Below are positions 31,966-55,905 of a stretch of 63,248 nucleotides of DNA, piece after piece. The notes below the pieces were generated by a model. That model was not told the DNA's origin. It searched no databases and saw nothing but the letters and a program-made list of their open reading frames with translations. The stretch lies in IMG/VR virus record IMGVR_UViG_3300019887_000001, positions 1-63,248 of that record; one strand, given 5' to 3'. How positions within the stretch are numbered: the first letter of the stretch is position 1; each line of letters opens with the position of its first letter. The DNA is from a virus (Duplodnaviria; Caudoviricetes). A program made the position numbers and the translations under genes.

Positions 31966-32502
31966 ATGAAACAGATGCAGACCCCATTTGGCCAATGGTT
32001 GACTGAAAAGCTCGATGAACGTGGCTGGATCGCTGCCGACCTGACCAGAGCATCCCAGACGCCCGACAACCCCCGCGGACTCGATTCTGGCCTCATCAGC
32101 CGCTGGTTACGCGACGGGCCCCTGGCGGCCACCCCGACCCACGCCGAGACGCTCAGCCGTCTGGCGCACGCGTTCAGGGTCCCCGACAGCGAGGTCTACC
32201 GCGCCGCCGGTCGCCTCCCGCCCGACATTCCGTCGAACCCGATCCAGAGCGAGCTCGAAGAGCGTCTGCACCACCTCGGCACGATCCTGAGCAAGTACCC
32301 GCGAGCGTTCTGGCTCGCCGTGATTGAGGCGAGCGAACACTTTGCCGAATCGACGACGCCCCCGCCTTCACCCCCGGTTAGCGCCACCAAACCACACGTA
32401 CTTAACGCGCCCAGTAGGTCGCTAACTACGGCCACTTCGCGTCGCCGCAAGCGGTTAACGGATTCACAACCCGCCTTTGTGCCCGTCTCTCTCGCCGCCT
32501 GA
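31966..32502 (+). CDS. Immunity repressor (XRE HTH) with C-terminal -LAA tail
   Basis: FGQWL...LDERGW..ADL.R...GL....ISRW...LA.AF.V....VYRAAG; start may be ATG 31975. Confidence 0.82.
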   Translation: MKQMQTPFGQWLTEKLDERGWIAADLTRASQTPDNPRGLDSGLISRWLRDGPLAATPTHAETLSRLAHAFRVPDSEVYRAAGRLPPDIPSNPIQSELEERLHHLGTILSKYPRAFWLAVIEASEHFAESTTPPPSPPVSATKPHVLNAPSRSLTTATSRRRKRLTDSQPAFVPVSLAA

Positions 32503-32520
32503 TGCGCACGTAACGCGATT

Positions 32521-33567
32521 GTGACTCGACGGCCCCCGTCAATTCCCCTAGACGGGGCGGTACCGAAGACTGCCGATCCTTCTATCTTCCGCACCCTGAA
32601 CGGGAGGAAGATCGTGGATCTGTATGACGCAGCTTCGTACCACCAGTTAGCGCTCAACGCCGCAGGCAAGTCGCCGAACACCCTCAAGCTGTACCTGCTG
32701 TACGAGAAACGCTTTCTGGAATACCTCAACGCACGTCATATCGCCGCCGACCTGGACGCGCTGAACCCACTCTACGCACGCCAGGCCGTGCTCTGGTTTC
32801 AACAGCGCCGCGTTGGCACCCGCGGCGGCGTGTCCGCAACCGCGATGTTCCTGAACGTGCTCAAGACCTGGGCGTCGTTCCTCGAAGCGGAAGGCGTGTG
32901 GGCCGACTCGCCATTACGCCGCGTGCAGCGGGTCAAGGTGAGGAAGCTCGAGCGCCAGCCGTACACGCGAGCCGAGTGCAACGCGCTGTTGTATTCGTGC
33001 TCAGCCAGCTCGTCGCCGGAACGCGACCGATTCCTCGTGGAGCTGCTGCTCGGGTCGGGCGCGCGGATCGGCGAGGTGACCGGTCTGCGGCTCGGCGACG
33101 TCCGCTGGGATCGACGCACGATCCGCGTCCTCGGCAAGGGTAACCGTGAGCGGACGGTCCCGATCGGCGACCCCGAGCAATCCGACGGTGGGCCGGTCTG
33201 GCGCTCGTGGCGTGTGTACCTGAAGGTGCGCGCGGCGCAGGTCGATCGGATGCGCGGGCGCGCGCACGACCAGCTCTTTCTGACCCTGGCCGGCTACCCG
33301 CTGACCGCGGAAGGCGGTGCCGACGTCATCCGTCGCCTGGGTGGATCCGTCGGCGTCGAGGGTGCCCTTCCGCATCGTTTTCGCCACACCTTCTGCACGG
33401 TGTATCTGACGCGGTACCCGGGCGACGAGATCGGCCTGCGCCGCATCGTTGGCCACCTGTCCAAAGCCGTGCTCGCCGACTACGTCCATCTCGCGAACGC
33501 CGAGATCGCGCTGCGTGCCGGCCACGGGTCGCCGATGAGTGTCTGGCTTACTGAGAAGATTCGCTAG
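32521..33567 (+). CDS. int: Tyrosine integrase
   Basis: GARIGE, GKGNRER, HRFRH, GH, DYVH catalytic residues intact. Confidence 0.93.
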   Translation: MTRRPPSIPLDGAVPKTADPSIFRTLNGRKIVDLYDAASYHQLALNAAGKSPNTLKLYLLYEKRFLEYLNARHIAADLDALNPLYARQAVLWFQQRRVGTRGGVSATAMFLNVLKTWASFLEAEGVWADSPLRRVQRVKVRKLERQPYTRAECNALLYSCSASSSPERDRFLVELLLGSGARIGEVTGLRLGDVRWDRRTIRVLGKGNRERTVPIGDPEQSDGGPVWRSWRVYLKVRAAQVDRMRGRAHDQLFLTLAGYPLTAEGGADVIRRLGGSVGVEGALPHRFRHTFCTVYLTRYPGDEIGLRRIVGHLSKAVLADYVHLANAEIALRAGHGSPMSVWLTEKIR

Positions 33568-33943
33568 TCGTTTCCTGATCGGCCCAGGCGCGCAGCACGC
33601 GAATCAGTTGGGTGTTGAGACTCCGCCCCTCCCGCGCGGCCAACATTTTTGCCGTTGCAAGCAGGTCCTCAGGAAAGCGAACGGTACGGTGCAGTCTGGA
33701 GAGCGCTGGGTCACGCGGCGCACGTGGGCGCACCCCGTCTCCTTTGAGTTTGTTGCATAGCGAATGTGCTGGTTGCAGATTGGGCATCGTGTCCAAGCCA
33801 CCCTTGGCCCGCGCAATGACGTGGTCGATCTCCATATCGCCCCGCGCCACAGGTGTTCGGCAGATCCCACATAGTCCGTCGGCGCGTTCCCACAGGAAGT
33901 CGCGGAGCGCGTCAATCGTTGCCACGCTCAGGCCTCTTGGCAA
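33548..33943 (-). CDS. HNH nuclease fused to Arc-like ribbon-helix-helix
   Basis: CGIC..EIDHVIARAKGG...NLQPAH..CN..K; then TVRFPEDL.......AAREGRSLNTQLI. Confidence 0.82.
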   Translation of the reverse strand: MPRGLSVATIDALRDFLWERADGLCGICRTPVARGDMEIDHVIARAKGGLDTMPNLQPAHSLCNKLKGDGVRPRAPRDPALSRLHRTVRFPEDLLATAKMLAAREGRSLNTQLIRVLRAWADQETTSESSQ

Positions 33944-34073
33944 GTGCCCATGTCAGTAGCCATTTGACGGCAGCAGCCCTCGACTCAAAGCGCTGACTAA
34001 AACGGAACTCGTCGAGTTGGGCAATCAATTCGGGAGGTGCGACGAAGTTGAGAACGGGGGGCTTTTGTGACAT
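33912..34073 (-). CDS. CopG/RHH DNA-binding protein
   Basis: LNFV.PPELIAQLDEFRF.QRFESRAAAVKWLL; leaderless ATG at 34073. Confidence 0.75.
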   Translation of the reverse strand: MSQKPPVLNFVAPPELIAQLDEFRFSQRFESRAAAVKWLLTWALAKRPERGND

Positions 34074-34136
34074 ATTGCCAGTATAGACGACCACGTAGCC
34101 ATTGTCCATACGTCTTGTATCGGCTATACTCACTGC
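34074..34136. promoter_or_regulatory. Back-to-back leaderless promoters with overlapping -35 boxes
   Basis: Plus: TTGTCC-17-TATACT-6-ATG(34137). Minus: TGGACA-17-TATACT-6-ATG(34073). Confidence 0.75.
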
Positions 34137-34328
34137 ATGAGCCAGACAGTACCAGGGACTGAACCAGTACTCGAACGACTCGGCGCGATGATCGCCACCC
34201 TCGCTGGCGCGGTCGCCGCCGCCGACCTGTACCTCAACTCGTACGACACCTCGGCCCCGTCGCGCATCAAGGCCGAAACCCGCCTCGTCATCGAAGAGGC
34301 AATGGCGCTCATCAGACCACGGTCATGA
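34137..34328 (+). CDS. Hypothetical protein
   Basis: Leaderless first gene of plus-strand operon. Confidence 0.65.
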   Translation: MSQTVPGTEPVLERLGAMIATLAGAVAAADLYLNSYDTSAPSRIKAETRLVIEEAMALIRPRS

Positions 34329-34570
34329 GCGACAGCATGGACATCGCGGTAGCGACCGACCACTTACGCGAAGTCCGACGAACCCTCCAAGCCATCAATG
34401 GCTGCCCCTTCAACCTTCCGGACTACGAATTAGATTCGGCCATCGACATGTTGACTCGCCTCGCCAACAACGCAGCCATCATCCGCCACGAAGCCGTCGT
34501 CGCCAAGGCGCGCGCACTCAAAGCGAAGCGCGCCTTTGATCGCGACATGAGAAAGGCTCTCCGCTCATGA
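34325..34570 (+). CDS. Hypothetical protein
   Basis: ATGA-coupled. Confidence 0.6.
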   Translation: MSDSMDIAVATDHLREVRRTLQAINGCPFNLPDYELDSAIDMLTRLANNAAIIRHEAVVAKARALKAKRAFDRDMRKALRS

Positions 34571-34691
34571 GCCGCAAGCCCTGGATCCAAGCTCGCAACC
34601 CGAACGTCTTCGTCATCCTGTGCTCCCAGTGCGGGCAGCACCACGACCGTCGCATCGCCTGCGGCACACTCGGGAAGTCGGTCTCGAAGTC

Positions 34692-35036
34692 ATGACGTAC
34701 CAAACCCTGACTGTCGGCAAGACTGTCGCCGAACGCCGCGTGCAACGAGCCGAGGTCCTGGCATCGAACAGCCGCCAGTGGATCGCTTGTTCGACTCGAT
34801 TTGCCGGTTCAGCTCGCGGCGAATCGGTGGTGTGGGCCATCCCGTCGCAGTCGGTGCTCGGCCTGTGGCACCTCGCTACGGACCAGGGATGCGGATGCCA
34901 CGATGCACGGCGCCGCAGCGGTCGCTGCAAGCACCAACTCGCAATCCGATTGGTCCTCGCACAACATGGGCTCCGCCCCGAAGAGCGGACAAACAGCCGT
35001 CGCAACGGACATGTCAACGGAAAGGTTCTGCCATGA
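34692..35036 (+). CDS. SWIM Zn-finger protein
   Basis: IPSQS...WH.....CGC.D......RCKHQLA. Confidence 0.72.
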   Translation: MTYQTLTVGKTVAERRVQRAEVLASNSRQWIACSTRFAGSARGESVVWAIPSQSVLGLWHLATDQGCGCHDARRRSGRCKHQLAIRLVLAQHGLRPEERTNSRRNGHVNGKVLP

Positions 35037-35357
35037 CCCACCCCACTCGCACCCGTCCGCATTGCCAGGGGTCGGACCGGAGAACGCATCGAACGTGCAG
35101 CTATCTGGCGGCAAGACGGACTCGCTGTCACTCGCGGACTGGCCCCCGATACGGGCTACACCATCACCCACGTTGAGAGCGGCTACGCGCTGGTCATCAA
35201 CATCCCGACCCAGGCTCGCGCTCGTAAAGCCGCAGAGCGCTTCCTGTCACTCGGGAATTGGAACGTATCGCGTACCACCCTCCTCAAAAATAGCGCCATG
35301 AAAGTCGCCTCGCGTGAACTCAAAGCTGAGCTGCGGGCCGAAGGGATTTTGTCATGA
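35033..35357 (+). pseudogene. Gene whose ATG (35033) is out of frame with its coding body (35037-35357)
   Basis: Body GLAVTRG...YTITHVESGY ends in ATGA overlap with next gene; removing one C after the ATG restores the frame. Confidence 0.55.
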
Positions 35358-35539
35358 CTGTCGATATCAGCGTTGCCCACCTCGGCGACCGCTCCGTCTT
35401 CATGCCGTTGACAGAGCACGGCGCGCGCTGGCTGAACACTCACATCCAGGGGTACATGTTCAGCGGGCGCGCGGTCGTTTCCTACGCCTCCGCCGACCTG
35501 ACCCAACGCCTCCGCGACGCAGGACTGGTGGTCGCGTGA
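35354..35539 (+). CDS. Hypothetical protein
   Basis: PLTEHGARWL..HI motif; coupled. Confidence 0.65.
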   Translation: MTVDISVAHLGDRSVFMPLTEHGARWLNTHIQGYMFSGRAVVSYASADLTQRLRDAGLVVA

Positions 35540-35736
35540 GCATACCGATGACCTTCGCTGAGTGGATGACCGCCATCGCCCAGACGTACTGGGACATCAA
35601 CTACCCCGAGTTTTGTCGTCGTGCGGGGTTCTCGGAAGATGACTATTCGGACGACAAGTGGCACACGTGGCTCGCACTCGCCAAGTGCCTCAAAGCGTTC
35701 GATGCGGGCACGCTCGAAAGGATCGTGCAGCCGTGA
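35536..35736 (+). CDS. Hypothetical protein
   Basis: GTGA-coupled; INYPEFCRRAGF. Confidence 0.55.
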   Translation: MSIPMTFAEWMTAIAQTYWDINYPEFCRRAGFSEDDYSDDKWHTWLALAKCLKAFDAGTLERIVQP

Positions 35737-35915
35737 CTGACTTCAAGGCTTGCCCTGGCACACGCCAGCCTACTGTCAAACGCTACAAGATCAAGCCAAC
35801 ATATCGAACCGGCGACTACGCCGATCGCTACGGCCGCGGTCACTGCTCCGTCTGCGGTAAAGACGTCACCTGCCATAAAGACAAGTCTGCGGTACGCCAC
35901 AAGGCCACCCAATGA
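35733..35915 (+). CDS. Small Zn-binding protein
   Basis: CPGT...GHCSVCGK...RH. Confidence 0.55.
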   Translation: MTDFKACPGTRQPTVKRYKIKPTYRTGDYADRYGRGHCSVCGKDVTCHKDKSAVRHKATQ

Positions 35916-36277
35916 CCACCCAGCCCCACAGCACCATCATCGCCGCGCTCGCGGCCTGCCGTAAAGCCTTCCAAACGAAACTCGACACCGGCGCCTGCAT
36001 GCATGACCGCAGTGATTGGAAAGCGCTCCACACCGCGACCGTCATCGCCCTCGCCGCAGCCAAGGAACAGCGCGCTGAGGTACTTCGACTCAAGAGATTG
36101 GTGCATCAGGCATTCGACGCTATCGACAACCACCCGTCCCAGCCGAAACGGTTCGTGAAATATCCCTGCGCTGACTGTGGCGAACCGGTCTCTAACGCGG
36201 GCTTCGCCCGCCGATCGCACGAGCGCGGCACCATTCACCGTGCTGCTCTCGACGCTAAAGCGCGGTCGACAAGCTGA
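35912..36277 (+). CDS. Hypothetical protein with C2H2-like tail
   Basis: YPCADCG......F....H....H. Confidence 0.55.
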   Translation: MTTQPHSTIIAALAACRKAFQTKLDTGACMHDRSDWKALHTATVIALAAAKEQRAEVLRLKRLVHQAFDAIDNHPSQPKRFVKYPCADCGEPVSNAGFARRSHERGTIHRAALDAKARSTS

Positions 36278-36462
36278 TGGCCCGCGGCGTCAAACGCGAC
36301 TCGCCACGCGACCTCCAGATCCGCATCGGCGCCGCGCTCGACAACATCGAAGACCTCAGAGCCCAGGTTGTCACTCGCGAACGCGCCATCGAAGCCGAAC
36401 GCCGCCTGATCACCGAACTCGAGCGCCGGCTTGCCGAAATGGAAACTGCCGCAGACACCTAA
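36277..36462 (+). CDS. Small coiled-coil protein
   Basis: TGATG-coupled; heptads. Confidence 0.55.
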   Translation: MARGVKRDSPRDLQIRIGAALDNIEDLRAQVVTRERAIEAERRLITELERRLAEMETAADT

Positions 36463-36491
36463 CGCGCCTGCGGCAGTCCGGTCACCTCAGA

Positions 36492-36947
36492 TCAAAAAGG
36501 GAGATCATCGAGGTTCACTGGTGCCAGCGCGTCGGCCGGCTCCGTCGTGCGTCGAGCCCGCTCGTTCGCTGCATGGACCGGCTCGCCGCGACTCGCGTAC
36601 TCTGCCGACCCGCTCGTTGGCGCGTCTCGAGGAGATAAATTGGTCACCTCGTCGCACCACACGTTCAGCCCAGCCCGCGGCTCGTTCTCACGCGACATGT
36701 ACGCGTCGATCGACAGGTTCCCAATCACGTGGACCCTCGACCCCTTCCCCAGCTTCCGCGCGTACTCGAGCTGCCGACCCATGACCGTCACCCGATACCA
36801 ATCCGTGTGGTCGGTGCACTCGTCCGACTGTGGCACCTTCCGCCGCTCGTTGACCGCGACATTGAACTGTAACCGCTCTTTGCCATCCTGCGTAAATCGC
36901 GACTCAGGATCGCTGCCGAGATTGCCAATCAACATGATCTTCTGCAT
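36492..36947 (-). CDS. ssb: Single-stranded DNA-binding protein
   Basis: IMLIGNLGSDPESRFT, TDWYRV, LGKGSRV.V.G, C-terminal DDLPF. Confidence 0.95.
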   Translation of the reverse strand: MQKIMLIGNLGSDPESRFTQDGKERLQFNVAVNERRKVPQSDECTDHTDWYRVTVMGRQLEYARKLGKGSRVHVIGNLSIDAYMSRENEPRAGLNVWCDEVTNLSPRDAPTSGSAEYASRGEPVHAANERARRTTEPADALAPVNLDDLPF

Positions 36948-37200
36948 GACTTGAATTCCCTCGCCCGCCAGATGCACGGGCCCGTTTTGTTCGTCCTCAA
37001 TCGATGAACCGACGCGATCCTCTCCTCCCCTCGACAGAGCCTGCCGACCGAAGTGATACAAGTCACGGACCCTGGAAGCGGGTCGCTGTCAAGGCCGAAG
37101 AGCGGAGACGGGAAGGGGCCCCGCGCTCTTCGGAACGTGGGGTAGGTTCCCGCCGGAGCGTGCCTTGACTGGACCCGCTGGAAGGCGTCACCCTACACGA

Positions 37201-37398
37201 TCACTTCTGGTCGTCAGGCGCCCACACGCGCCACACTGGCGTACGCACGAACTCCTCCTCGTACCCAACCGGATTCCAGTTGACTGCCTCCGAGTCGGTC
37301 ACCCCGTACTCAACCAGCAGCACCCCGGCGTTCTCGTCCAGGTCGACCTCGAGCACCGTCATGTCGTCGCTCTTCACGGCGTCAGCCACATCCCCCAT
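37201..37398 (-). CDS. Acidic hypothetical protein
   Basis: 65 aa at end of the T4SS-like operon. Confidence 0.45.
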   Translation of the reverse strand: MGDVADAVKSDDMTVLEVDLDENAGVLLVEYGVTDSEAVNWNPVGYEEEFVRTPVWRVWAPDDQK

Positions 37399-37522
37399 GC
37401 AGCGCTAGCACCGGCAAGAGCAAAACAATGGCGATCACACCTAAAACGATCATGATCACGCTCAACACCGTCGCCTGCACTATCGTGTTCCGCTGTTCTC
37501 GCTTGAATTCCTCGTCATTCAT
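37382..37522 (-). CDS. Small single-TM protein (46 aa)
   Basis: MNDEEFKREQRNTIVQATVLSVIMIVLGVIAIVLLLPVL; ATGA-coupled to the VirD4-like gene. Confidence 0.55.
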   Translation of the reverse strand: MNDEEFKREQRNTIVQATVLSVIMIVLGVIAIVLLLPVLALHGGCG

Positions 37523-39180
37523 GGCGCCACGTCCGCGTACTGCGCATGCCCCGTCGGCAGCTCGCCCCGCTCCCGAGCATGTCGACGCCTCAAGTTCTCA
37601 GCCCGCGTACACGCCTCAAGATGATCAACGCACGCCTTGATGTCGCACACGTGGTCGACCGTCCACCCCTTCTGCATCACCCCGTGCTCCCACTCGCAGA
37701 TCAGTCGATGCGCCTGCTCGTACTTGCGCCTCGTCGGCACCCACACCCGCGGATACCCGTCAACGTCGAAATTCCCGACCCACGTCCGCCAGCCATCCTT
37801 CACCTTTACGTGCCGATACACCATGCCTCGAAGATCTTCCTCTGGTTCCGTCCCTCCGTTACCTTCCGCAGTCGGTTCCATCTCGACGGCGGGTTCCTCC
37901 GCAGGTCCCTCCGCGAGCACCTTGACGTTGACCTCGAGCACGTACGGCAGCGCGATCCGCGCCATGCCCCACCTCCCATCCATGCGGTCAACCGGCCGCA
38001 CGCGATACGCGCACTCGCCCGTCCCGAGCCACATCAGGTCGTCGCGCATGACCGTCGGCGTACCGCTGGCGAACTTTCCGAGGGTGACGTTATTAATTCG
38101 ATGATCGTTTTCAGAACGCGGGACCTTGAGCGGAAACAACCGACTCAACGCGTCCGCGTCGTCGGGATCCCCCTGCGCCAGGATGACCTGCCAGGCCGTC
38201 TCCTGAAGCACCTGATTGCCGAGACCGTGCACCGCAGCTTCGAGCTGGCTCAGCCCGTGCGCAGCAACGACCACCCCGACCCCCGCGTCTCTCGCCCGGG
38301 CGAGCAGCGGCTCGAGGTGACGCGCGTGCTTGCCGAGCGCGCCAACCTCGTCGACGACGAGTAAGCAGGACGTCCCGACCGGCACCGCGGTACAGGCCCG
38401 CTGCAGCGCAACGAGCGCCCACGCGCCGATGATGCGCGCCAGCGACGGGTAGCGCCGACTGTCCAGGCTGACGAGCAGCGTCGTCTTGCCCTGCACGACA
38501 TCCTCGAATCGAGCCGCGTCGATGCCCGCACCCAGACTAGGGCCGGCGGCAGAGTCGAGCAGTCTCGTCACCCGCATGAGCGCCGTCGCCATGCCGGACA
38601 ACTCCGTTACAGACGCGGCCGCGAGCTCTGCTTGCCAGATCGGCACCCGCGGCCTACGCTGATTCCGCTTCAGCGCGGCGGCCAGCATGGTGGGGTTGAG
38701 CAGTGCTTCGACTGCTTCTAGCGTTGGAGGGGTCGCCTCCCAACGCAAGAGGTGACCGATCCACTGACACGCTCGGGCGGCCGCCTCGCTGAAGACTTCC
38801 GCCGGGCCCTCGTGGCGCGCGGCTTCGGTGAGCTGCTCGGCCAGTACCGTCGGGTCAGGGTCCAGCAGGTCGAGCTTGAGCCGCCCGCCGATCGTCCACA
38901 CCAGGCCGCCCGCGGCGGCGATCGCCTCCTGCATCGCCCGCGAGCCCTTCGCGTCGATGACGATGCACGGGCCGATGCTCGCGTGTCCCTGGACGAGGAG
39001 GCTGAGTAACGTGGTTTTGCCCGAGCCCGGTGCGCCGAATACCGCGCCATGGTGGCCCAGCTCGCGGCGAGAAAGACTGACCGTCTCGAGCGCTGACCGA
39101 TAACCGATCCCGACACGCCCATGCCGATGCCCGATGCCATGCCGCGCGCGTGCCGCCGCGATCCAGCCGGGTCGCCTCAC
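37519..39180 (-). CDS. VirD4/TraD-like coupling ATPase fused to C-terminal HNH nuclease
   Basis: HGAVFGAPGSGKT, IVIDAKG, LVVDEVG, ARARDAGVGVVVAAH; C-terminal DGYPR..AHRL...VDHVC...AC..HLEA.T..EN. Confidence 0.85.
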   Translation of the reverse strand: MRRPGWIAAARARHGIGHRHGRVGIGYRSALETVSLSRRELGHHGAVFGAPGSGKTTLLSLLVQGHASIGPCIVIDAKGSRAMQEAIAAAGGLVWTIGGRLKLDLLDPDPTVLAEQLTEAARHEGPAEVFSEAAARACQWIGHLLRWEATPPTLEAVEALLNPTMLAAALKRNQRRPRVPIWQAELAAASVTELSGMATALMRVTRLLDSAAGPSLGAGIDAARFEDVVQGKTTLLVSLDSRRYPSLARIIGAWALVALQRACTAVPVGTSCLLVVDEVGALGKHARHLEPLLARARDAGVGVVVAAHGLSQLEAAVHGLGNQVLQETAWQVILAQGDPDDADALSRLFPLKVPRSENDHRINNVTLGKFASGTPTVMRDDLMWLGTGECAYRVRPVDRMDGRWGMARIALPYVLEVNVKVLAEGPAEEPAVEMEPTAEGNGGTEPEEDLRGMVYRHVKVKDGWRTWVGNFDVDGYPRVWVPTRRKYEQAHRLICEWEHGVMQKGWTVDHVCDIKACVDHLEACTRAENLRRRHARERGELPTGHAQYADVAP

Positions 39181-39183
39181 GGT

Positions 39184-39444
39184 TCAGAGATAGCCATAGC
39201 ACGGTCCATCCGCGAACTTGCGCTCCACCTCGTGCAGCACCTGCTTTGCCAACCCTTTGATATCAATGACCTGATCGATGAGCACGTCCCTCACTGTCTG
39301 CTGACACCAGACCCCATCGCTCAACCGCGTGAACCGGTAACCGGTCCAGTGCCCGTCGTTACTATGCCGTGTCTCAATCTGGAAGCCGGGTGGCCGTAGG
39401 CTGAAAATCACAGCAGTAAGCGGGTTGAACTGTGGATGTGCCAT
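39184..39444 (-). CDS. Hypothetical protein in T4SS-like operon
   Basis: TGATG-coupled, 86 aa. Confidence 0.55.
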   Translation of the reverse strand: MAHPQFNPLTAVIFSLRPPGFQIETRHSNDGHWTGYRFTRLSDGVWCQQTVRDVLIDQVIDIKGLAKQVLHEVERKFADGPCYGYL

Positions 39445-39638
39445 CAGTGCAGCGGAACAATCTGAGTCGAGTAGATCGTTGCGGTTTTGCCTGGTGCCTG
39501 GTCGATGACGTCGATCTCAATGCTCGACGGCCTGCTCTCCCGCGGCCACAGCACGAGCAGGACCACGATCACGAGCGCCAGAATGGTCGCTATCAGCATC
39601 CACTGCTCGCGCGTCCAGGTCGCAACGTTCAGGTTCAT
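39444..39638 (-). CDS. Small single-TM protein
   Basis: WMLIATILALVIVVLLVLWPR; coupled both sides. Confidence 0.6.
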   Translation of the reverse strand: MNLNVATWTREQWMLIATILALVIVVLLVLWPRESRPSSIEIDVIDQAPGKTATIYSTQIVPLH

Positions 39639-39778
39639 AGGCCGATGTAGAACATCGTGCGCGTATCGCGCGACCGGTCCCGCGGAATCTTCAGCTTCGT
39701 CCTCGGCACCCTCGCAGCCCGATACATCAGCCAGTACAGGCCGACGCACACGATCCCCAGTACGACAAGCCCTATCAC
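39635..39778 (-). CDS. Small single-TM protein
   Basis: GLVVLGIVCVGLYWLMYR; GTGA-coupled to VirB4-like gene with GGAGG RBS. Confidence 0.6.
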   Translation of the reverse strand: MIGLVVLGIVCVGLYWLMYRAARVPRTKLKIPRDRSRDTRTMFYIGL

Positions 39779-41895
39779 GACACGCCCTCCTTCCTGATCG
39801 GAATCGGCTCGGCCTCGACCACCGGGTCTGAGTGGAAGGCGGCATGCTCCCGAGCGCTGAGCCGATCGAAAAGATCGAGCCAGACCCGTCGCAGTCCGCT
39901 GACGAGTAGTCCTGTCCCGATTCCCGCGCGACGCACCATCCCTTTCTCGTCGGCGCTCAACTCGAGCGCGTCCGCCACCTCGGCCAACTCCCGCGGTTGC
40001 TGCGCTCCGCACCACCACGCGTCGCAGTTGCCCTGCACCGCGCGGCCGACAGCCGTGCCGAACCATGACGACGGTCGCTGGGTCAGCACGTGAAAACTCT
40101 GTCCCCAGTGCCGCGACCGCTGCACTGCCTGACGCATCGCTCGTTCACCCGCGGGATCCTCAGACACCGTGATCGCCTCGTCGACAAACACGATCGACCT
40201 GCCCGGATGCGCCAGCATGTGCTGTTTGATCACATTCGTCCACGCCGCGAAGATCGCCCCGACGTGAGCCTCGTCGACCTCGCTCAGGTCAAGGATGACT
40301 ACTCCGTCGTCGCGATGCAGCACGATCTCGCGTGCGTCCCGCGCGTCTCGCGGCGTGAGCTTCCGCCCGCCGAGGTACTCGAGGAAGCGTCCGCAGTGCT
40401 CATGTTGCTCGTCCTGGTCGATGCCGAAAATACGGATGCCTTTGACGAGGTGCAACCGTGACGTCAGGATGTGGAACCCCATACCCTTGCCCGCGTTCGT
40501 CGCGCCGTACCAGCTCATGTGGGGTCCCTTCGACGTCGACACGTACGGCGTGAAGATGCACGGCCGATTGCCCGCGTTGCCCCACGGCACGCCGTTCGGT
40601 AGCTGTAGATAGCCATCCGACCACGGGTACGTCCGCGACACGGTCCGTGTGTCGACGAGGTGCGTCCGCCCCGTCATCGGCTTCGTTCGTACCGGGTCGA
40701 GCTGCAACAACCCATCTCCCTGCTCCCAGCGCAGGTTGTGGAGCTTGCCGCCGAGGGTCTTCACGTAGTCCTCGGTCTTGCGCGACCGTTTCCGCACATC
40801 CTGCCGCGACGACCCGCGAACGAGCACCGTCACCGCGACGTTGAACGGCTTCGTGTAGCGGTGCTCGAGCGCGTAGCGCAGGTCGGTCAGTTGCTCGAGC
40901 GCGACCATCCGCGCGGCAGACGGATTCGACGTCTCGAGTTGCCTGATCTTGACGTCGACGACCCACGCTTTCACGTACGTCTCGTTCTGTGGCACCACGT
41001 CGATCGCGATATCGAGCGCCTCATCACCGGCGAACAGCGGAGACGCCCAGTTGGTCAGAATCGCCGCCGGAAACTGACCGAGCGCGTACGCCCGTGTCCA
41101 CCATCCGTCGGCCTGCACCTCGGTCGTGCCCTCTTCCATGACTTCCGGTCCGTCGCGTGCCTCGGTCGCCTGCGGGTTCCACGTGAGCGTTCGCAGCAGC
41201 GGCACGTCCTCAGCCGGTACTCGCGACGCCTCGAGGTGCGCCTGCCGCAGCGCCTTCTCGAGCGCGGTCGTCCGAAACGCCAATTCCGACTCGTTCTGTG
41301 CCGGTACGACAAGCAACCTGTCGCGATCGATCAGACTGTGTTGCGCCAGCTCGCTCTCGAACCACGCGCCGAGATCGCGGGCCACCTCGAGTGGATGATT
41401 CCGCAACGCCTCGACGACCGGCAGCGTCGTCAGCGGGCGCCCGCGGATGACAATCTTGATCGGGTGCGTCAGCCCGTTGAGGATGGCGCCCCACTGAGCG
41501 CGCGCCTGGTGCCGCGCCTCGTCGCTAGCCGTCTCCAGGTTGATGGTTGGCATGCGATAGATCGCGACTGGCGTCGCCGGGCTCGTCGGCAGTTGCGCGC
41601 GATAGGTGCGCTTGACGAACCTCAGCGCGGCGAAGGTGCCATGCTCGGCCGGCGGCTTGAGCCACCAGGCCGTGTACGGCGAGATGAGTAGCGGCGGCAA
41701 TAGCGCGGCGCCGATCGTCGGCGGCAGCAATCCGTTCGTCGCCTGCCAGGCCGTGTACCCGAGGGGTATCCCGAGGAACACGCCCGCGTAGAGCGTCGGC
41801 ATGAGAAATCGGGCCGGAAATGGCCCGATGCTCTGCTGCGTCTCGAGATGCGAGGGTACTAAATAATGCTGCTCGCCAGACGATTCTTCAGCCAT
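39775..41895 (-). CDS. PrgI/VirB3-like membrane domain fused to VirB4-like ATPase
   Basis: YLVP.HLE...SIGPF plus 2 TM; NL...S.....Q....W..ILNGL.HPI.I; GATNAGKG; IDQDE; VFVDEA; RSRHWG.....LTQRP. Confidence 0.85.
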   Translation of the reverse strand: MAEESSGEQHYLVPSHLETQQSIGPFPARFLMPTLYAGVFLGIPLGYTAWQATNGLLPPTIGAALLPPLLISPYTAWWLKPPAEHGTFAALRFVKRTYRAQLPTSPATPVAIYRMPTINLETASDEARHQARAQWGAILNGLTHPIKIVIRGRPLTTLPVVEALRNHPLEVARDLGAWFESELAQHSLIDRDRLLVVPAQNESELAFRTTALEKALRQAHLEASRVPAEDVPLLRTLTWNPQATEARDGPEVMEEGTTEVQADGWWTRAYALGQFPAAILTNWASPLFAGDEALDIAIDVVPQNETYVKAWVVDVKIRQLETSNPSAARMVALEQLTDLRYALEHRYTKPFNVAVTVLVRGSSRQDVRKRSRKTEDYVKTLGGKLHNLRWEQGDGLLQLDPVRTKPMTGRTHLVDTRTVSRTYPWSDGYLQLPNGVPWGNAGNRPCIFTPYVSTSKGPHMSWYGATNAGKGMGFHILTSRLHLVKGIRIFGIDQDEQHEHCGRFLEYLGGRKLTPRDARDAREIVLHRDDGVVILDLSEVDEAHVGAIFAAWTNVIKQHMLAHPGRSIVFVDEAITVSEDPAGERAMRQAVQRSRHWGQSFHVLTQRPSSWFGTAVGRAVQGNCDAWWCGAQQPRELAEVADALELSADEKGMVRRAGIGTGLLVSGLRRVWLDLFDRLSAREHAAFHSDPVVEAEPIPIRKEGVS

Positions 41896-41901
41896 GACCG
41901 A

Positions 41902-42144
41902 TCAGGGCAGTCCGAAGACGCCTTTCAGCCACAACCCGAGCGCGCCACCACCCCCGACAAGGAAACTCCCGCCGAGCGACGCCATCAACAGTTTTTTGAT
42001 GAACCCGCCAATATGCATGTCGAAGATGGAAAAATAGAAGGCAAGACCGCCGAAGATGATCGTCATCGTCAGCAGTCCCGCGCCGAGCAGCGCGGCGCCC
42101 GTGGCAATGGCCGTAAACGCGGTAACGAGTGGTGTAACTGGCAT
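41902..42144 (-). CDS. VirB2/TrbC-like pilin-type membrane protein
   Basis: 80 aa, two hydrophobic helices separated by a basic IKKLL loop; between VirB6-like and VirB4-like genes; GGAGG RBS. Confidence 0.6.
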   Translation of the reverse strand: MPVTPLVTAFTAIATGAALLGAGLLTMTIIFGGLAFYFSIFDMHIGGFIKKLLMASLGGSFLVGGGGALGLWLKGVFGLP

Positions 42145-42159
42145 CGAACGTCCTCCAGT

Positions 42160-43197
42160 TCAGTCGTAGTTGTTGAATCGATGCGTTGCGTTGGCGGCCT
42201 GCATCGCGGAGTAGGACCGCATGGCCGCGGCTTGAGATCCTGCCGATATCGCTGCTCCTCCCACACCTCCGAATACGACCGCACCGGATCTGACCCCGGC
42301 CCCGAGCACGCCGCCAAGCGACGCGCCCGGCGTGCGCGCCAGCCAGTCGACGAGGTCGGCCGCCGCGATGAATGCCGCCCCGGCACCTAAAAACGCAAGG
42401 ATGCCTGGCGTGAGCACCGCGATGCCCCACCCGATCGCAACCGCGGCCGTCGCTAGCACAACGCCCATCAGCCGCCCGACAAACTCGCGTGTCCACAGCG
42501 ATGTGACCCACGCGCCCTCAGGGATGAACCCGGCGATGATCGCGACGGGTGCCCAGGCGATCGCGACAGCGACGTGCACGACGTTCGACAACAGCTTGAG
42601 ACACAGCCTGATGCCGAGCACGAACATCAGCAACAGGCTGAACGCGAAACTGAGCGGGTTGCCCTGGTTGACCTGCGTCGGGATCGTCGCGGTGATGCTC
42701 GCGAACGCCGTCGCGGTGATCGATTGCACCGCGGCCTGCTCGATGTCGATGGCGTGGCCGATCCCCCATGGCAGCAGCGACAGTATCGCGATCGACTTCA
42801 CGATCCGCCCGAGTGCTTCGTCGAGGATGCCACCTCCACCAACGATGCCGCGGTAGTACGTACGCAGCCCGAGCAACACGATAGACAGCACCAGGCCGGC
42901 TGCGGCGATCTGGGTGCCCGCGGCAAAGAGCGCCGCTACGGGCGGGAACTGATCGGTGAGCGCGTGCGGGATGTCGACCAGGGTGACCTTCAGAATGGCC
43001 AGGAACATCTGCAGCAGGGCCGTGTAGAGCGCGTCGGTGAGCGCGCCGAAGATGGTGGCACCGATCATCGGCAGGTTCTGACTGACGCCGGTCCAGATCG
43101 CCGCGCCGATGACGTCGAGCTGGCCGATGAGCGCCTGCCAGAAGCCGTTGAAGTTGATCTGAATCGGTCCCGTCGACTGCGCGAATTGATCAGGCAT
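42160..43197 (-). CDS. VirB6/TrbL-like polytopic membrane protein
   Basis: Six or more TM segments, APVAIIAGFIP....TSLW.REF motif, Gly/Ala-rich tail. Confidence 0.75.
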   Translation of the reverse strand: MPDQFAQSTGPIQINFNGFWQALIGQLDVIGAAIWTGVSQNLPMIGATIFGALTDALYTALLQMFLAILKVTLVDIPHALTDQFPPVAALFAAGTQIAAAGLVLSIVLLGLRTYYRGIVGGGGILDEALGRIVKSIAILSLLPWGIGHAIDIEQAAVQSITATAFASITATIPTQVNQGNPLSFAFSLLLMFVLGIRLCLKLLSNVVHVAVAIAWAPVAIIAGFIPEGAWVTSLWTREFVGRLMGVVLATAAVAIGWGIAVLTPGILAFLGAGAAFIAAADLVDWLARTPGASLGGVLGAGVRSGAVVFGGVGGAAISAGSQAAAMRSYSAMQAANATHRFNNYD

Positions 43198-44053
43198 CCT
43201 CAACCCTCCTGGTGACGGTACGCGGTTTCCAGACCGCGACTCGGCGCCGTGTCATGAGCCAACTCAACGCTGCGACGATGACGATGATCGCGGCGAGCCC
43301 CTCGAAGAAACCGCCCCAGTCCCAGTGACCCTCAATCGGTGGGATCGTCGCGCCGGCGATGACCAGCGGCGTGGGAGTCGCCGTAGAGGTCGCTTGCAGG
43401 GTCCCTGTGGGGGTCGCCGTGCGCGTGCCTGTCGGGGCGACCGTGGGCGTAGACGTCGCTAGGGGCGTGCCTGAGAGCGTTGACGTGGGCAATGGCGTGT
43501 AGGTCGGGTACGGCGTATAAGTTGGTTGTGGGTCGATGGCACTGGCCGGTGCTTCGGGGGCGCTCGGCTGCGGACGTGGCGGCGGGGGCAGTACTGCGAG
43601 CGAAGTGGGAGGCGCAGCAGGAATGGGAGTACGCGTTGGCTCGACGGACGGTTCCTCAGACGCTTCGTCTGCTGTCACGTCTGTCATTGGATCTGGACAC
43701 GGCAGCGGCACGTAGACGTCCGGATCGTCTTCCGACTCGACGAACACGATGTCTCCGTTATCGTCTACTTGCCAGCAGGGGGCGTCGGTCGGCGTCGGGG
43801 TCTCGACCGATACGGGTTCGCTCGTCGGGGACGGGGTGGACGTCGCTACCGCGACCGGTACGAGACTCGCAGTCGCCCTCGTCGTTGGGGTTGTGGTAGG
43901 GCACTCAGGTCGCCTCTGCGCGATGCAGTTCGCCGTCTCAGCCGTCGCGTGGGTCGCAACAGTCGCGGTCCTGTCGGCTCGGATCTGGTCGTCATTCTGA
44001 TCGGCCCCAAAGAGCCGCACGGCCAGGAGAACCGTGATGACTGTTGCAGGCAT
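43190..44053 (-). CDS. Cell-surface protein (signal peptide, Pro/Thr stalk, C-terminal TM anchor)
   Basis: PTYTPYPTYTP and TATPT repeats; TM followed by RRR. Confidence 0.7.
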   Translation of the reverse strand: MPATVITVLLAVRLFGADQNDDQIRADRTATVATHATAETANCIAQRRPECPTTTPTTRATASLVPVAVATSTPSPTSEPVSVETPTPTDAPCWQVDDNGDIVFVESEDDPDVYVPLPCPDPMTDVTADEASEEPSVEPTRTPIPAAPPTSLAVLPPPPRPQPSAPEAPASAIDPQPTYTPYPTYTPLPTSTLSGTPLATSTPTVAPTGTRTATPTGTLQATSTATPTPLVIAGATIPPIEGHWDWGGFFEGLAAIIVIVAALSWLMTRRRVAVWKPRTVTRRVEDA

Positions 44054-44098
44054 ATTGCGGTATGCTAACGCAACCGTGCCGGGGTGTTACAAGTGACA
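44054..44098. promoter_or_regulatory. Divergent control region with two inverted repeats (candidate operators)
   Basis: TTGCG-N9-CGCAA and TGTTAC-AA-GTGACA; TAGCAT-8 nt-ATG on minus strand, TATGCT on plus. Confidence 0.45.
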
Positions 44099-44320
44099 AA
44101 CGAAACTGTTGCGGTTCCGGGCCTTGCCTGGCGGCGACAGCATCTCTTCTTTTCGCAGACAGAGCTCGCGCGCGTGTCCGGGATCACCCGTCAGACCATC
44201 GCGCGCCTCGAGGGTGGCGACCGCGCCGCGCCGCGAACCGTCCGCAAGCTCGCTGAGGCGCTAAATTGCGAGCCTCAGGAGTTGACGTTGCAGCTATCCG
44301 CTAGCGGTAGGACTGAATAG
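44084..44320 (+). CDS. XRE-family HTH regulator, divergent from the T4SS-like operon
   Basis: SQTELARVSGITRQTIARLEGG...TVRKLAEAL. Confidence 0.88.
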   Translation: MLQVTNETVAVPGLAWRRQHLFFSQTELARVSGITRQTIARLEGGDRAAPRTVRKLAEALNCEPQELTLQLSASGRTE

Positions 44321-44486
44321 GTCTAAGTTAGGGATGACAAAGCTGGCCTGTTTCAACTGTGAACGCTGTACGTGGAACCCCGGCGCGGACTGCGGCAAGC
44401 GCGAGCACTCGCACTGCGAGAAGTGCGGACACTGCATCGGTCGTCACGTCTCCGTCGCCCTACCGCTTGATAACGATAAGAGGCAC

Positions 44487-45212
44487 TTAGCAGGCCCAGA
44501 GGTGGATATTGCCCTGCCCGAGGCGATTGGCGAGCGCGAGTTGTCCCTTGAGGTTCGCGGTCGCAAGGATCGGGATCAGGTTCGCATCTACTCCGGTCGC
44601 GCGCATCTCAGCGAACGCTGGTGTCGGCCACAGGTTCGGGCTCGGGTACGACGCCGCGGTCTGAAGCCCTCCGTAGACCTCGAGCGCGAGCGCGCCGCAC
44701 CCCGCGGCCAGATTCGGCAGGCTGTTGCGGAACGCACCCAGTCCCCATCCATTCGGCACGACCGTTGCCGACACGTTGCCGCTCAGCGCTTCCTGGTCGG
44801 GTAACGCATTCCAGAACGTCGACCACCACGCGTCGATCGCGGCAGGATCGTCGCCGAGGGTCCAGAACGAATCGGGCTCGAAGTTCGCCGAGTAGTACCC
44901 GGATGCTGCCGCGAAACCTGCCGCCAGCTCGGGACTGGACTGATCGACCGGTACGCCCCACGCGCCAAAGCCGAGTCCGGCGGCCTCAACGGCAGCCCTG
45001 ATCGGGCCAACGTCGGCCGGTGACGCGACGCACATGTCGGTCGGCAATGACTGGCGACACTGCGTCTGCGGCCACTGTCCGAAGTGCGTCGGCAGCAACA
45101 GCGACGGCGCAGCGTTGACCGAAGCGGCGAGGTTGCGCACGGTGTCGATGGCCGAGGTGAGCGACCCGAGCGCGGTGAAGGGTGTTATCCAGACTGTCAG
45201 GGACCTGTTCAT
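44487..45212 (-). CDS. Putative glycoside-hydrolase-like (TIM barrel) endolysin
   Basis: GFGAWGV, NFEP, alternating beta/alpha pattern; near holin-like gene; GGAGG-like RBS; function tentative. Confidence 0.45.
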   Translation of the reverse strand: MNRSLTVWITPFTALGSLTSAIDTVRNLAASVNAAPSLLLPTHFGQWPQTQCRQSLPTDMCVASPADVGPIRAAVEAAGLGFGAWGVPVDQSSPELAAGFAAASGYYSANFEPDSFWTLGDDPAAIDAWWSTFWNALPDQEALSGNVSATVVPNGWGLGAFRNSLPNLAAGCGALALEVYGGLQTAASYPSPNLWPTPAFAEMRATGVDANLIPILATANLKGQLALANRLGQGNIHLWAC

Positions 45213-45481
45213 GATGAGGAAATCCTCCGTAACCCCGCTTCCGGAAGGTGCTGCGCCCAGAACCGTCGCCACCAGAGCAGTCCGTTGAGCGCGCGCTGGT
45301 CCTCGACCATCATGCGGTGAGCGCTGCAGGTGGTGTTCCGATAATCCCCTTCTTCGCTGTACGTACAGTCGCAGAAACGATCGACAGCCGCCATGAGCGC
45401 GATGGTCTCGTCAGGCGTGCCGTGAAAGATGGTCTGCTCGCGTATAAAAATCACGCGGACGGAACAACCGTCCTCCCCCAC
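45209..45481 (-). CDS. Hypothetical protein
   Basis: FCDC.......TCSAH...DQRALNGLL. Confidence 0.55.
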   Translation of the reverse strand: MGEDGCSVRVIFIREQTIFHGTPDETIALMAAVDRFCDCTYSEEGDYRNTTCSAHRMMVEDQRALNGLLWWRRFWAQHLPEAGLRRISSS

Positions 45482-45651
45482 CAGTAATGCGACAGCACCG
45501 CGAGGAACGCGACGAGCGCAATAAGGCCGACAAGGGGGTCCGGCCAGCTAATGTGAAAGATGAACTGCAGCAGCCACGGCAACCCGTACCAGACGATGGC
45601 GAACGCCAAACACGCAAGCGCGATGCGGAGCAGCCACTGGATCCAGGTCAC
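45451..45651 (-). CDS. Putative holin (2 TM)
   Basis: Two TM helices; AGGAGG RBS. Confidence 0.55.
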   Translation of the reverse strand: MTWIQWLLRIALACLAFAIVWYGLPWLLQFIFHISWPDPLVGLIALVAFLAVLSHYWWGRTVVPSA

Positions 45652-45663
45652 GACAGGTCCTCC

Positions 45664-46095
45664 TTATGACGGGGCGTACGCGACCCAACCGAACGTCACG
45701 TTGGATCCCGCGTTCCCGTTGTGGAAATAGATCTCGAACCCGGTCGTGGTCACCAACCGCACGACCGCGGGGAAATCGTTCTTTGGGTCGCCGCCGATAA
45801 TCTGCTGATTCACCACGACCACCGGTGTGGACACGAACGGCGTGCCAAACGTGATCAATCCCGTGCCCTGGTCACCTCCGCCGGCGGGCGCAACGGTCTT
45901 TAGCCCGTATTCCACGTGCCCTGGGCCAGGAGGTCCGGTTGCCCCCGCAGGTCCGGTCGCTCCCGCGGCACCGGTCGCGCCCGTGGCACCAGTAGCGCCG
46001 GTCGCTCCCGTCGGGCCGGTCGGTCCCGCGGGCCCTGTTGCCCCCGTCGCGCCCGCCGCGCCGTTTGCCCCGACGTGCAGTGGTGTGTAGGTCAT
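45664..46095 (-). CDS. Collagen-like fibre protein with C-terminal lectin-like domain
   Basis: GXY repeats; [15 protein letters not shown]...TTTGF.I....W.A. Confidence 0.8.
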
Positions 46096-46111
46096 ACCGC
46101 CCTCCGAATGG

Positions 46112-46687
46112 TCAGTAGAACGCGTCTCGCCCTACTGTCTTGGCGAATGCGAGGACAGCGGCATGAGCCTGCTCCTCCGTATCGAACGTGCCAAGGTAAT
46201 AGCGTTGCTCGTCCACCTCGAGCCGGCCCATCCATCGCTTGTGGTTCGGGTGCACTCCACGAAACCGCGAGCGTGTGCCCGTCCGTTTGGAACTGTTGAG
46301 TTGATTGATTCCGGTTCCGTCGCGGAGATTTGAGCGACGGCAGTTGTGTGGATCAAGATCGATATGATCAACAGTCTTGACCCCCGGCATCAGCATGCGA
46401 TGTAGATACTCGTCCCGACCCTTGAGTCGCGTTCGTGCGTAGCCATCGCTGTTGTTTTGCCAGAGATGTTTCGCTAGGGACGGAAAGTCGGCGAGATCCA
46501 CAATCCAACGCACGCCATGCGGGTCGCTGAGAACTCCTACTTCGCCCTCTATGAAGTTCCGCGCACGGAGACGCTCGAAGAATGGGACCTGTCCCCTGGC
46601 TGTCGCGTAGTAGCAACGCGCGCACATTCCGCGACAATAGGCCGCTCGTTCTCTGCATCGAGCACACATCATGTCTGCCTGCCGCAT
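46112..46687 (-). CDS. HNH-AP2 homing endonuclease
   Basis: YLHRML...[14 protein letters not shown]; SRFRGV...W....[11 protein letters not shown]. Confidence 0.9.
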
Positions 46688-54909: not shown

Positions 54910-55905
54910 TCACCCAGCTACGGCGGTCTCAATTCTGAGTATTCGTGCCGCGTCAAGTATCTTAGCGCAATAAGCAACTTTCCAGCCTGCGACCCCGTAC
55001 TGCTGCAGCGGGTCGACCTTCGATGGCGTGTTCGCGGGCACAACCATGATGTCGATGCCGGCGTTGTTCGTCTCGGCGTTCAGGTTGCCGATCGTCTGAG
55101 AAGCCAGGTCGACGGCGCCGAACGCGTACGGGCCCCAGATCAGCGCGGCGTGGACGTCGACACCCGCCGCGCCAGCACCCGTGAAGATCGGGTTGGCCGT
55201 GCTGACGTCGAAGTTGACGCCTTCGATCTCGCCGACGGTGCCACTCATGAACGACGCCGGCGCGGCGTAGCGCATGATGTCGAGCCAGCCGCCGGTCGCA
55301 GCGTCGGCCTTCAGGTCGTACTTCTGCGACGGAGTGACGGAGCCGTGGTAACGCGCGTCGGGAAACCGCGGCACGTTCGCCTTTTCCATCGTGCGAACGG
55401 CCTTGCGAACCTCGGACATGACGAAGTTCATGCCCGCCGCGACCGTCACCCTGGAGACTGCCGTCGAGGCGTACTGAACTGTCGAAGACGCGCCCAGCTC
55501 GGTCGCGGTCAGCGTGTGGACCGACAGACCGGCTTGCTCACCTTCGACGTCCATGACGTTGGACATCGACGGGTCGATGCCCGCGCGAATGAGCAGGTCT
55601 GAGACCTTTTGGAACGCCCCGTACTGGGCGAGCGTCGAGGTTACCGCGGTGACGGTCAGCGACCCCTCAGAAGGCGGCGTGCCTTCAGTCAGCGCCGACG
55701 TCGCGGCTGGGAGACTGCCCCACTTGCGCCACTGGATGCCCGTACCAGTGTTGCTGCCGATCGTGTCGGTCATCGCGTCTTTGAGCAGCGGCAGGTACGG
55801 GAGCAGACGCCTCAGCGTCTTGGCCACGTAATACGATCGCTGCTCGACCGTCAACGTGGCGTAGGTCTGTACGGAAATTTGCTTTACCCGCGTCTTTCTA
55901 TACAT
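54910..55905 (-). CDS. Major capsid protein (N4-gp56-like)
   Basis: LTEG.PP, LAQYG, V..M..ANVP, G.VGEIEGV.F, DPLQQYG..GWK; true start uncertain (see findings). Confidence 0.92.
   Translation of the reverse strand: MYRKTRVKQISVQTYATLTVEQRSYYVAKTLRRLLPYLPLLKDAMTDTIGSNTGTGIQWRKWGSLPAATSALTEGTPPSEGSLTVTAVTSTLAQYGAFQKVSDLLIRAGIDPSMSNVMDVEGEQAGLSVHTLTATELGASSTVQYASTAVSRVTVAAGMNFVMSEVRKAVRTMEKANVPRFPDARYHGSVTPSQKYDLKADAATGGWLDIMRYAAPASFMSGTVGEIEGVNFDVSTANPIFTGAGAAGVDVHAALIWGPYAFGAVDLASQTIGNLNAETNNAGIDIMVVPANTPSKVDPLQQYGVAGWKVAYCAKILDAARILRIETAVAG

Follow-up and report, generated by a model that had tools for sequence, protein, structure and literature searches.

A predicted type IV secretion-type cassette, apparently captured as cargo, in the genome of a tailed phage of uncultured Chloroflexota

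The IMG/VR virus record IMGVR_UViG_3300019887_000001 is the complete genome of a tailed phage (Caudoviricetes) of an uncultured Chloroflexota host; its whole length of 63,248 bp, rated 100% complete by CheckV and given the class 'linear', was analysed here and is referred to as the window. Inside this genome lies a cassette of ~6.9 kb, made up of eleven open frames on the minus strand (37201-44053), which appears to encode a genuine and intact type IV secretion-type set and most likely a contact-dependent DNA channel. Successive frames overlap or lie at most 15 nt apart, GTGA, ATGA and TGATG occurring among the overlaps, and the junction TGAACCGTG precedes the gene of a 553-aa ATPase. An earlier annotation made from the letters alone (the sequence-only reading) had described a coupled minus-strand operon encoding a surface protein, a polytopic membrane protein, an 80-aa pilin-like protein, two ATPases with their nucleotide-binding motifs and small transmembrane (TM) proteins, and all of these were found in place in the translations; the end of the operon was moved from 37382 to 37201. 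Open reading frames (ORFs) were called by a simple rule on GC content at third codon positions (GC3), with which small genes were possibly missed or mis-started. We regard the cassette as intact because its frames are open and coupled and its Walker motifs and HNH motif are kept, and as more than a chance grouping because its gene order is conserved in other contigs.

The largest protein of the cassette is a 706-aa ATPase (39775-41895, minus strand; motifs GATNAGKG and VDEA), which profile and model comparisons identify as a two-domain VirB4. Taken alone, it matched 0 Pfam families at E≤0.1, and its only PHROG match was a 'terminase' family, via the C-terminal part. Among 30 relatives, AAA_10 was detected in 16 (best E 7.5e-6) and TraC_F_IV in 2, and the profile of these 30 relatives (A1) matched the VirB4 structure of Thermoanaerobacter in the PDB (4ag5) with an E-value of 5.5e-16. 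The AlphaFold model (pLDDT 79) was aligned in VIA to R388 TrwK/VirB4 (7o43) over 576 residues, covering model residues 100-694 (Z 26.2, rmsd 4.4), and to 4ag6 over 250 residues (Z 26.9, rmsd 2.7); HerA, DndH and packaging ATPases cover just a core of ~250 residues of the same model. A RecA ATPase of the VirB4 C-domain type and a VirB4-type N-terminal domain are both present. Ahead of this VirB4 body the model shows an N-terminal helical hairpin (helices 28-52 and 59-75), which may represent a fused VirB3-like part. Across the 30 relatives G469 and K470 of Walker A and the D-E of Walker B are invariant, and G471 is kept in at least 90%. Database searches returned 64 VirB4 relatives at E≤1e-3, the window copy included; they are hypothetical proteins, and the few whose source is named come mostly from Chloroflexota metagenome-assembled genomes (MAGs). 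A total of 65 loci, 7 from genomes and 58 from metagenomes, were fetched (L numbers below).

The second ATPase, of 553 aa (37519-39180, minus strand; GAPGSGKT and VDEV), is by its family and fold matches predicted to be a coupling-protein-like ATPase with a fused nuclease. Pfam TrwB_AAD_bind was matched with an E-value of 4.3e-12 (46.1 bits against a gathering cut-off of 20.5) and HNH_3 with an E-value of 5.7e-8, the ATPase occupying residues ~1-420 and the HNH domain ~450-540. The fusion of an HNH nuclease to a coupling protein had been missed by the sequence-only reading. PF10412 was found on 25 of 35 homologs, and the D-H...N motif of the HNH domain is present in the window as well as in 8/8 fetched homologs. 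In the model (pLDDT 77) an all-helical insert (110-209) separates Walker A from Walker B. VIA placed TrwB (1e9s) first, with Z 26.2 over 348 aligned residues, practically level with the VirB4 C-domain (26.0, 321 residues) and DndH-C (25.5); DotL (24.8), HerA (22.7) and FtsK (16) follow. A classification of the two ATPases as HerA/FtsK enzymes, named beforehand as a result that would overturn a secretion-type assignment, is not what was obtained; for the 553-aa protein HerA lies 3.5 and FtsK 10 Z units below TrwB.

The window protein belongs to a short form of 546-591 aa that makes up 19 of the 35 homologs, and 7 of the 8 fetched short-form homologs carry no TM segment and begin directly at an R-P-G motif. 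The long-form relatives in alignment A2, 7 in number, all have an N-terminal TM segment. That the 553-aa ATPase might be a truncated, decaying copy, deprived of the TM segment and of a C-terminal domain, was ruled out, since the short form is a common and normal subfamily. Long-form relatives lie at L001:12619-15456, L008:12383-15229, L010:12495-15182 and L050:1759-4617; after the HNH domain they carry a conserved domain of ~300 aa with D-x-D and H-T-T-W-S-H-like motifs, which has no Pfam match and looks primase-polymerase-like by eye.

Directly upstream of the 553-aa gene, a soluble ORF of 86 aa (39184-39444, minus strand) shares its reading frame with the ATPase; a single TGA stands between them, the GTG start following two codons on. 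With a GC content of 0.56 it is poorer in GC than the ATPase gene (0.67); it has no family match in Pfam, PHROG or PADLOC, and none of the fetched loci contains a homolog. Possible explanations are the insertion of a gene, an N-terminal extension produced by read-through, and a scar.

The polytopic membrane protein, of 347 aa (42160-43203, minus strand), has 5 hydrophobic segments; in a protein atlas its features and predicted structure resemble TrbL/VirB6, the role implied for it by the sequence-only reading. It reached a feature score of 0.93 to the TrbL_3/TrbL_4 clusters, its ten best family-bearing matches all belong to one clan, and the structural TM score was 0.55-0.62 to TrbL, TraJ and pLS20_p028 clusters, a result graded as a lead by the tool. 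The protein has no Pfam match and its profile A3 no significant PDB match; homologs were found in 13/65 loci. The 80-aa protein (41902-42144, minus strand) has two helices and a conserved loop D-x-H-I-G-G-F-x-K; a basic loop between two hydrophobic helices can be seen by eye throughout the family, and in alignment A5 G33, K50 and G59 are invariant. Of two PDB rows obtained with profile A5 at E≤10, one is VirB2 of A. tumefaciens (8exh), matched over nearly its full length with a non-significant E-value of 0.97. The 80-aa protein of the sequence-only reading is present, its pilin label is a lead, and the protein may be a VirB2-like subunit.

The first gene of the operon encodes a secreted, Pro/Thr-rich surface protein of 287 aa (43190-44053, minus strand) with a signal-like N-terminal segment and a C-terminal TM segment at 249-267. 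No family was matched in Pfam, PHROG or PADLOC at E≤0.01 (the sub-threshold Pfam row FAS_I_H has an E-value of 0.091). L001, L008 and L010 have a homolog at the equivalent place, and in L006 one lies downstream of the VirB4-like gene; we consider the protein a candidate adhesin. The remaining small frames, all on the minus strand, are a single-TM ORF of 47 aa (39635-39778; GC3 0.81) whose start overlaps the VirB4 stop in GTGA; a single-TM ORF of 64 aa (39444-39638), with an ATGA overlap upstream and TGATG downstream, which the ORF list also gives in a longer form from an earlier start (39444-39845); a single-TM ORF of 46 aa (37382-37522), overlapping the stop of the 553-aa gene; and, as last coupled gene, an acidic ORF of 65 aa (37201-37398; GC3 0.85) without a family match in Pfam, PHROG or PADLOC.

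Divergently from the operon lies an XRE-type helix-turn-helix (HTH) regulator of 78 aa (44084-44320, plus strand), and 140 nt 3' of the operon an SSB gene (36492-37061, minus strand; Pfam SSB E 3.6e-21, PHROG 44 E 1.3e-27), in agreement with the earlier annotation of both. HTH_3 and related Pfam families were each matched by one unspecified member of a 32-ORF set that contains the regulator. By tblastn, L001/L009, L010 and L019 have a regulator homolog in the same divergent arrangement, and ORF clustering (family F8) added L008. The SSB may be part of the cassette or of the phage replication gene set; no homolog of it adjoins the cassette in any relative. The sole integrase of the window, a tyrosine integrase (32521-33567, plus strand; PF00589 E 5.3e-23), is convergent with the operon. 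As the earlier annotation had stated, there is no second integrase (a Pfam scan of 62 ORFs returned no second recombinase) and no boundary repeat: exact direct repeats of at least 14 nt bracketing the block were absent from 28-47 kb, where all repeat families are imperfect, and no att-like repeats were seen. A promoter scan gave 0 sites, and 3 terminator-like sites were found against 4.3 expected.

The genome around the cassette is that of a phage. TerL (13625-15517) was identified by PHROG 38 (E 6.8e-63) and an HK97-type major head protein (54910-55905) by PHROG 1357 (E 1.6e-48), and further phage genes encode a scaffold-like protein, tail-spike-like proteins, RecT and a primase-helicase. No library search of the record's proteins named a portal protein, structural proteins of 1524, 795, 697 and 680 aa were left unnamed by PHROGs and Pfam, and the 795-aa protein had no useful PDB match. 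A close relative is available in G002, a phage genome of 60,509 bp, likewise rated 100% complete, whose terminal repeat spans 123 bp. It is matched by 18 of the 62 window ORFs, among them TerL (61%), the 795-aa protein (72%), the major head protein (79%) and tail genes (53-60%). With tblastn of frames spanning the joined ends of our record against G002, the left end (1901-1620) and the right end (63138-62152) map 570 bp apart and collinear; since the ends are thus neighbours in G002, the record is a circularly permuted whole genome and not a prophage with host flanks. The claim that the block sits inside a complete tailed-phage genome is upheld by these results.

In contrast to the conserved part, 0 of the 22 ORFs of 31966-46687 match G002. 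This region holds the integrase, the SSB, the cassette, lysis-side genes, a collagen-like fibre and an HNH-AP2 gene, and the corresponding position of G002 is taken up by 9.5 kb of different genes; no VirB4 was found on searching that genome. Within this temperate tailed-phage genome the cassette thus occupies a variable stretch between the lysis-side genes on one side and the integrase and early genes on the other. Searching 50,697 phage records, we found no match to the block with megablast and none to VirB4 with tblastn; the coupling ATPase matched 38 records, and among the 25 rows listed only its HNH part (residue 437 onward) was involved. When 2.9 million viral contigs were scanned by pattern, with A1, A2 and P0045 as queries, neither ATPase was recovered and one HNH match only; these scans use few peptide patterns, and diverged copies can be missed. 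A tail-protein query found no viral relative. Neither the 2.9 million contigs nor the 50,697 records yielded another viral carrier of either ATPase. The idea that the block is a phage module is not sustained as far as a conserved module is concerned: the one complete relative lacks it, no other viral carrier was found in these searches, and its relatives lie in plasmid- or ICE-like surroundings (ICE, integrative and conjugative element). Because a close relative phage lacks it, the cassette looks like captured cargo, and we interpret it as intact captured cargo rather than as a conserved phage module.

GC content, codon usage and tetranucleotides of the cassette match the remaining phage genome. 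Its tetranucleotide correlation is 0.976 with the phage early region and 0.96 with the structural regions, and 0.924 with the homologous cassette of L001.

Other genes of the phage deserve a brief description. Two pectate-lyase-type tail-spike-like genes (10170-13612) lie directly 3' of TerL, before the 795-aa gene, and are not present in G002. An OmpR-type response regulator (receiver plus Trans_reg_C) is encoded at 19165-19866, and a LuxR/GerE-type regulator is also found among the early-region ORFs. At 45664-46687, between tail and lysis-side genes, a 143-aa collagen-repeat protein stands beside an HNH gene, neither of them occurring in G002; an H-type lectin domain and an AP2 domain gave one match each, to an unassigned member of the 32-ORF Pfam set.

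Outside phages, the ordered block of regulator, surface protein, VirB6-like protein, 80-aa protein, VirB4 and coupling-HNH protein was recovered in L001/L009, L008, L010 and L019, and part of it in L020. In a VirB4 tree, a quick version built from 51 of 61 protein ids (≥650 aa) and 11 locus translations of at least 650 aa, the window copy is nested among those of L001, L008 and L010; the long branch P0056 is unreliable. In L001, L008 and L050 the cassette is accompanied by ParA, ParB and a DnaB helicase, and in L010 and L020 by downstream integrases in the same relative orientation as that of the window, to which they are 24-33% identical. An arrival of integrase and cassette as one ICE was considered and rejected on this low integrase identity, the corresponding VirB4 proteins being 68% and 38% identical. 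Of 401 Chloroflexota genomes, 57 contain VirB4-like matches at E≤1e-5, three unpublished ones included (G177, G276 and G348; 54/398 without them), and only 2 (G001 and G319) contain close relatives. The phage major head protein matches 1 of the 401 (G013, 32% identity), which has no VirB4-like match. As seen so far, the cassette family appears confined to soil Chloroflexota, with the block on plasmid-like and integrase-bearing elements.

A sister clade shows a different arrangement, an NlpC/P60 hydrolase coming first, followed by a VirB6-like protein, a small protein and a VirB4-like protein, without a coupling ATPase. Such sister clusters lie at L005:7631-12628, among metabolic genes on a 1.66-Mb Chloroflexia contig, and also in L004, L006 and L021; the hydrolase of these clusters combines NlpC/P60 with a transglycosylase. 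The chromosomal sister clusters may serve their host in DNA exchange or uptake.

The cassette of L001 is the closest long-form one. We examined whether its element is itself a phage and rejected this, the rest of its 42-kb contig showing neither a long same-strand virion-like operon (by eye) nor a match to a window protein; in the whole L001 MAG, phrog_38 and phrog_1357 gave two weak P-loop rows only, on other contigs. Elsewhere on the L001 contig (L077:11459-12853), neighbouring ORFs judged by eye resemble caspase and TIR proteins, which suggests that this plasmid- or ICE-like element carries defence genes. Behind the cassette of L020 come an integrase, regulators and a recombination ATPase of a phage family (phrog_1366, E 2.3e-79), and L010 has, ~3 kb from the cassette, a homolog (34% identity) of the scaffold-like 336-aa protein of the window. 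As leads, these two loci point to a recurring link of the cassette with phage genes. In the window the scaffold-like 336-aa protein (56891-57901) and the 1524-aa protein (58615-63189) lie upstream of the capsid gene; at L010:5-4838 the 336-aa homolog is preceded by a protein of at least 1203 aa, for which no PHROG family was found, and L054:1250-1660 encodes a piece of the 1524-aa protein near the VirB4 gene of that locus.

Several known systems provide a frame for interpretation. Single-membrane conjugative type IV secretion systems (T4SSs) include Con of ICEBs1, Tcp of pCW3, Tra of pIP501 and Prg of pCF10. Like these, the cassette appears to combine in one operon a VirB4 with a VirB3-like part, a VirB6-like protein, a coupling-type ATPase and small membrane and surface proteins; the NlpC/P60 wall hydrolase that is typical of them was seen only in the chromosomal sister clusters. 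Unlike them, the window has no relaxase found (four families), no recognisable VirB8-like protein and no hydrolase, its coupling ATPase is fused to an HNH domain and has the short form without membrane anchor, and its replicon is a tailed phage. We infer that the cassette is related to single-membrane conjugative T4SSs and probably works like them. The folds predicted for the 706-aa protein, in both domains, and for the 553-aa protein are like those of R388 TrwK and TrwB, although sequence identity to these structures is 13-15%, the window VirB4 has a Walker A of the G-K-G type and the TrwB match is tied with others. The archaeal Ced/Ted machineries for DNA import consist of a VirB4-like ATPase, a VirB6-like protein and small pilin-like proteins and have no relaxase, Ced being archaeal and chromosomal; to our knowledge, Ced has no coupling-type ATPase or nuclease. 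By composition, the cassette would share this minimal set without a relaxase, a likeness that is strongest for the chromosomal sister clusters. Finally, the mixture of phage and of plasmid or ICE mobility recalls phage-plasmids and, in Streptococcus pyogenes, the element Phi1207.3, described as a 'conjugative prophage'; the paper on it mentions no type IV system, VirB4, relaxase or FtsK, whereas our record encodes a VirB4 and a coupling-type ATPase.

We put the probability that we are dealing with a functional DNA-transfer cassette, carried by the phage as cargo, at roughly one half. In a lysogen the regulator would free the operon, upon which the surface protein would grip a neighbouring cell and the VirB6-like protein, VirB4 and the small membrane proteins would form a compact single-membrane channel. 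The HNH domain would nick or cut DNA at a recognised site, in place of the missing relaxase, and the HNH-fused ATPase, which is the only DNA-processing candidate in the cassette, would then pass the cut DNA to the channel. Any DNA that bears the recognised site would be moved in this way, the simplest candidate being the phage genome.

A number of observations weigh against this reading. The cassette is known from a single phage instance, which comes from a metagenome. According to the CONJscan rule, a self-transmissible element has a relaxase, a coupling protein, a VirB4 and channel genes; the relaxase families PF03432, PF02486, PF08751 and PF01076 gave 0 matches in the six frames of the record and were detected in control genomes, in a search that left out MOB-H, MOB-C, MOB-B, MobA_MobL and TcpM-like relaxases, and no relaxase and no ParA/ParB was found by Pfam in the 62 ORFs. 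Neither a VirB8-like protein nor a wall hydrolase could be recognised in the cassette. The set therefore falls short of the complete conjugative T4SS core proposed by the sequence-only reading. Within the ATPases, Walker A of VirB4 ends family-wide in G-K-G and not in the canonical G-K-S/T; the 553-aa ATPase has no membrane segment that could serve as N-terminal anchor, its fold match to TrwB is tied with those to the VirB4 C-domain and DndH-C, and it is matched by the PADLOC ATPase model mad8 (E 2.6e-14).

The alternative that survives best, which we nevertheless consider unlikely, is that the cassette is a hitch-hiker without a role, acquired from a plasmid or ICE by recombination and now neutral or being lost. 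Its absence from G002 and from every other viral record found would fit, as would the lack of a relaxase in the four families, and the low-GC 86-aa ORF, in frame 5' of the coupling ATPase behind a single stop, could be a scar. An inert passenger is harder to reconcile with ~6.9 kb of eleven coupled open frames in which the catalytic motifs are conserved, with a composition that already matches the phage, or with some 7 kb being spent in a genome of 63.2 kb that stays close in length to its relative of 60.5 kb, from which a size limit is inferred.

Less probable still is a machine for DNA import or another non-conjugative membrane function, similar to Ced, through which the lysogen would gain DNA uptake, adhesion or protein export. 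Such a role is suggested by the minimal composition without a relaxase found and by the sister clusters, whose lack of a coupling ATPase and position among metabolic genes, on the 1.66-Mb contig and in three further loci, fit a host function. The window type, however, always has the nuclease-fused coupling ATPase (10 of the 19 loci of at least 5 kb, the window counted) and rides on mobile elements and not on chromosomes, and we know of no DNA-import system with a nuclease-fused coupling-type ATPase.

An ATPase-nuclease system for defence or against plasmids, with the HNH-ATPase degrading DNA that enters the cell and the membrane proteins serving as sensors, seems improbable. Temperate phages often have defence cargo near the integrase, mad8 matches both ATPases (7.8e-6 for the 706-aa protein) and HerA- and DndH-type defence ATPases are near the 553-aa protein in fold (Z 20-25.5). 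Yet mad8, a generic ATPase model, was the only one of the 5027 PADLOC models to match, apart from a weak HerA P-loop row; the 7 other window proteins scanned had no match and no component set of a described defence system was present. Moreover, the 706-aa protein aligns to VirB4 across both domains (576 residues) and HerA-type enzymes to its ATPase core only, and a TrbL/VirB6-like partner is encoded alongside. A misjoining of phage and conjugative element by the metagenome assembler, conceivable for a single metagenomic record, is highly unlikely because two false joins would be required with phage genes flanking the block on both sides and away from any contig edge, composition is uniform, and the ends close on each other at a length close to that of the complete relative.

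A functional DNA-transfer cassette remains our preferred interpretation, and a further-reaching form of it, which we hold to be doubtful, is that this temperate tailed phage has two ways of spreading its genome, one in virions and the other by contact-dependent transfer through a compact type IV channel that it encodes itself, with the HNH domain replacing the relaxase. If true, this would be the first conjugative phage and, in addition, a relaxase-free start of conjugative DNA transfer. According to a 2025 review (PMC12282955), not a single conjugative phage-plasmid or prophage is known. In the main texts of the open literature we found no phage with a VirB4 and a coupling protein, no HNH-fused coupling protein and no relevant mating-pair formation system of Chloroflexi.

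Gene flow by phages and gene flow by conjugative elements are regarded as two distinct routes, and the record described here offers a concrete candidate for an element that uses both, the cassette giving the phage what might be a second way to spread. A nuclease-fused coupling ATPase in one complete element in which no relaxase was found points to an undescribed form of DNA processing for transfer, in a little-studied phylum. Should the cassette merely be cargo, it would still show transfer machinery moving between conjugative elements and phages.

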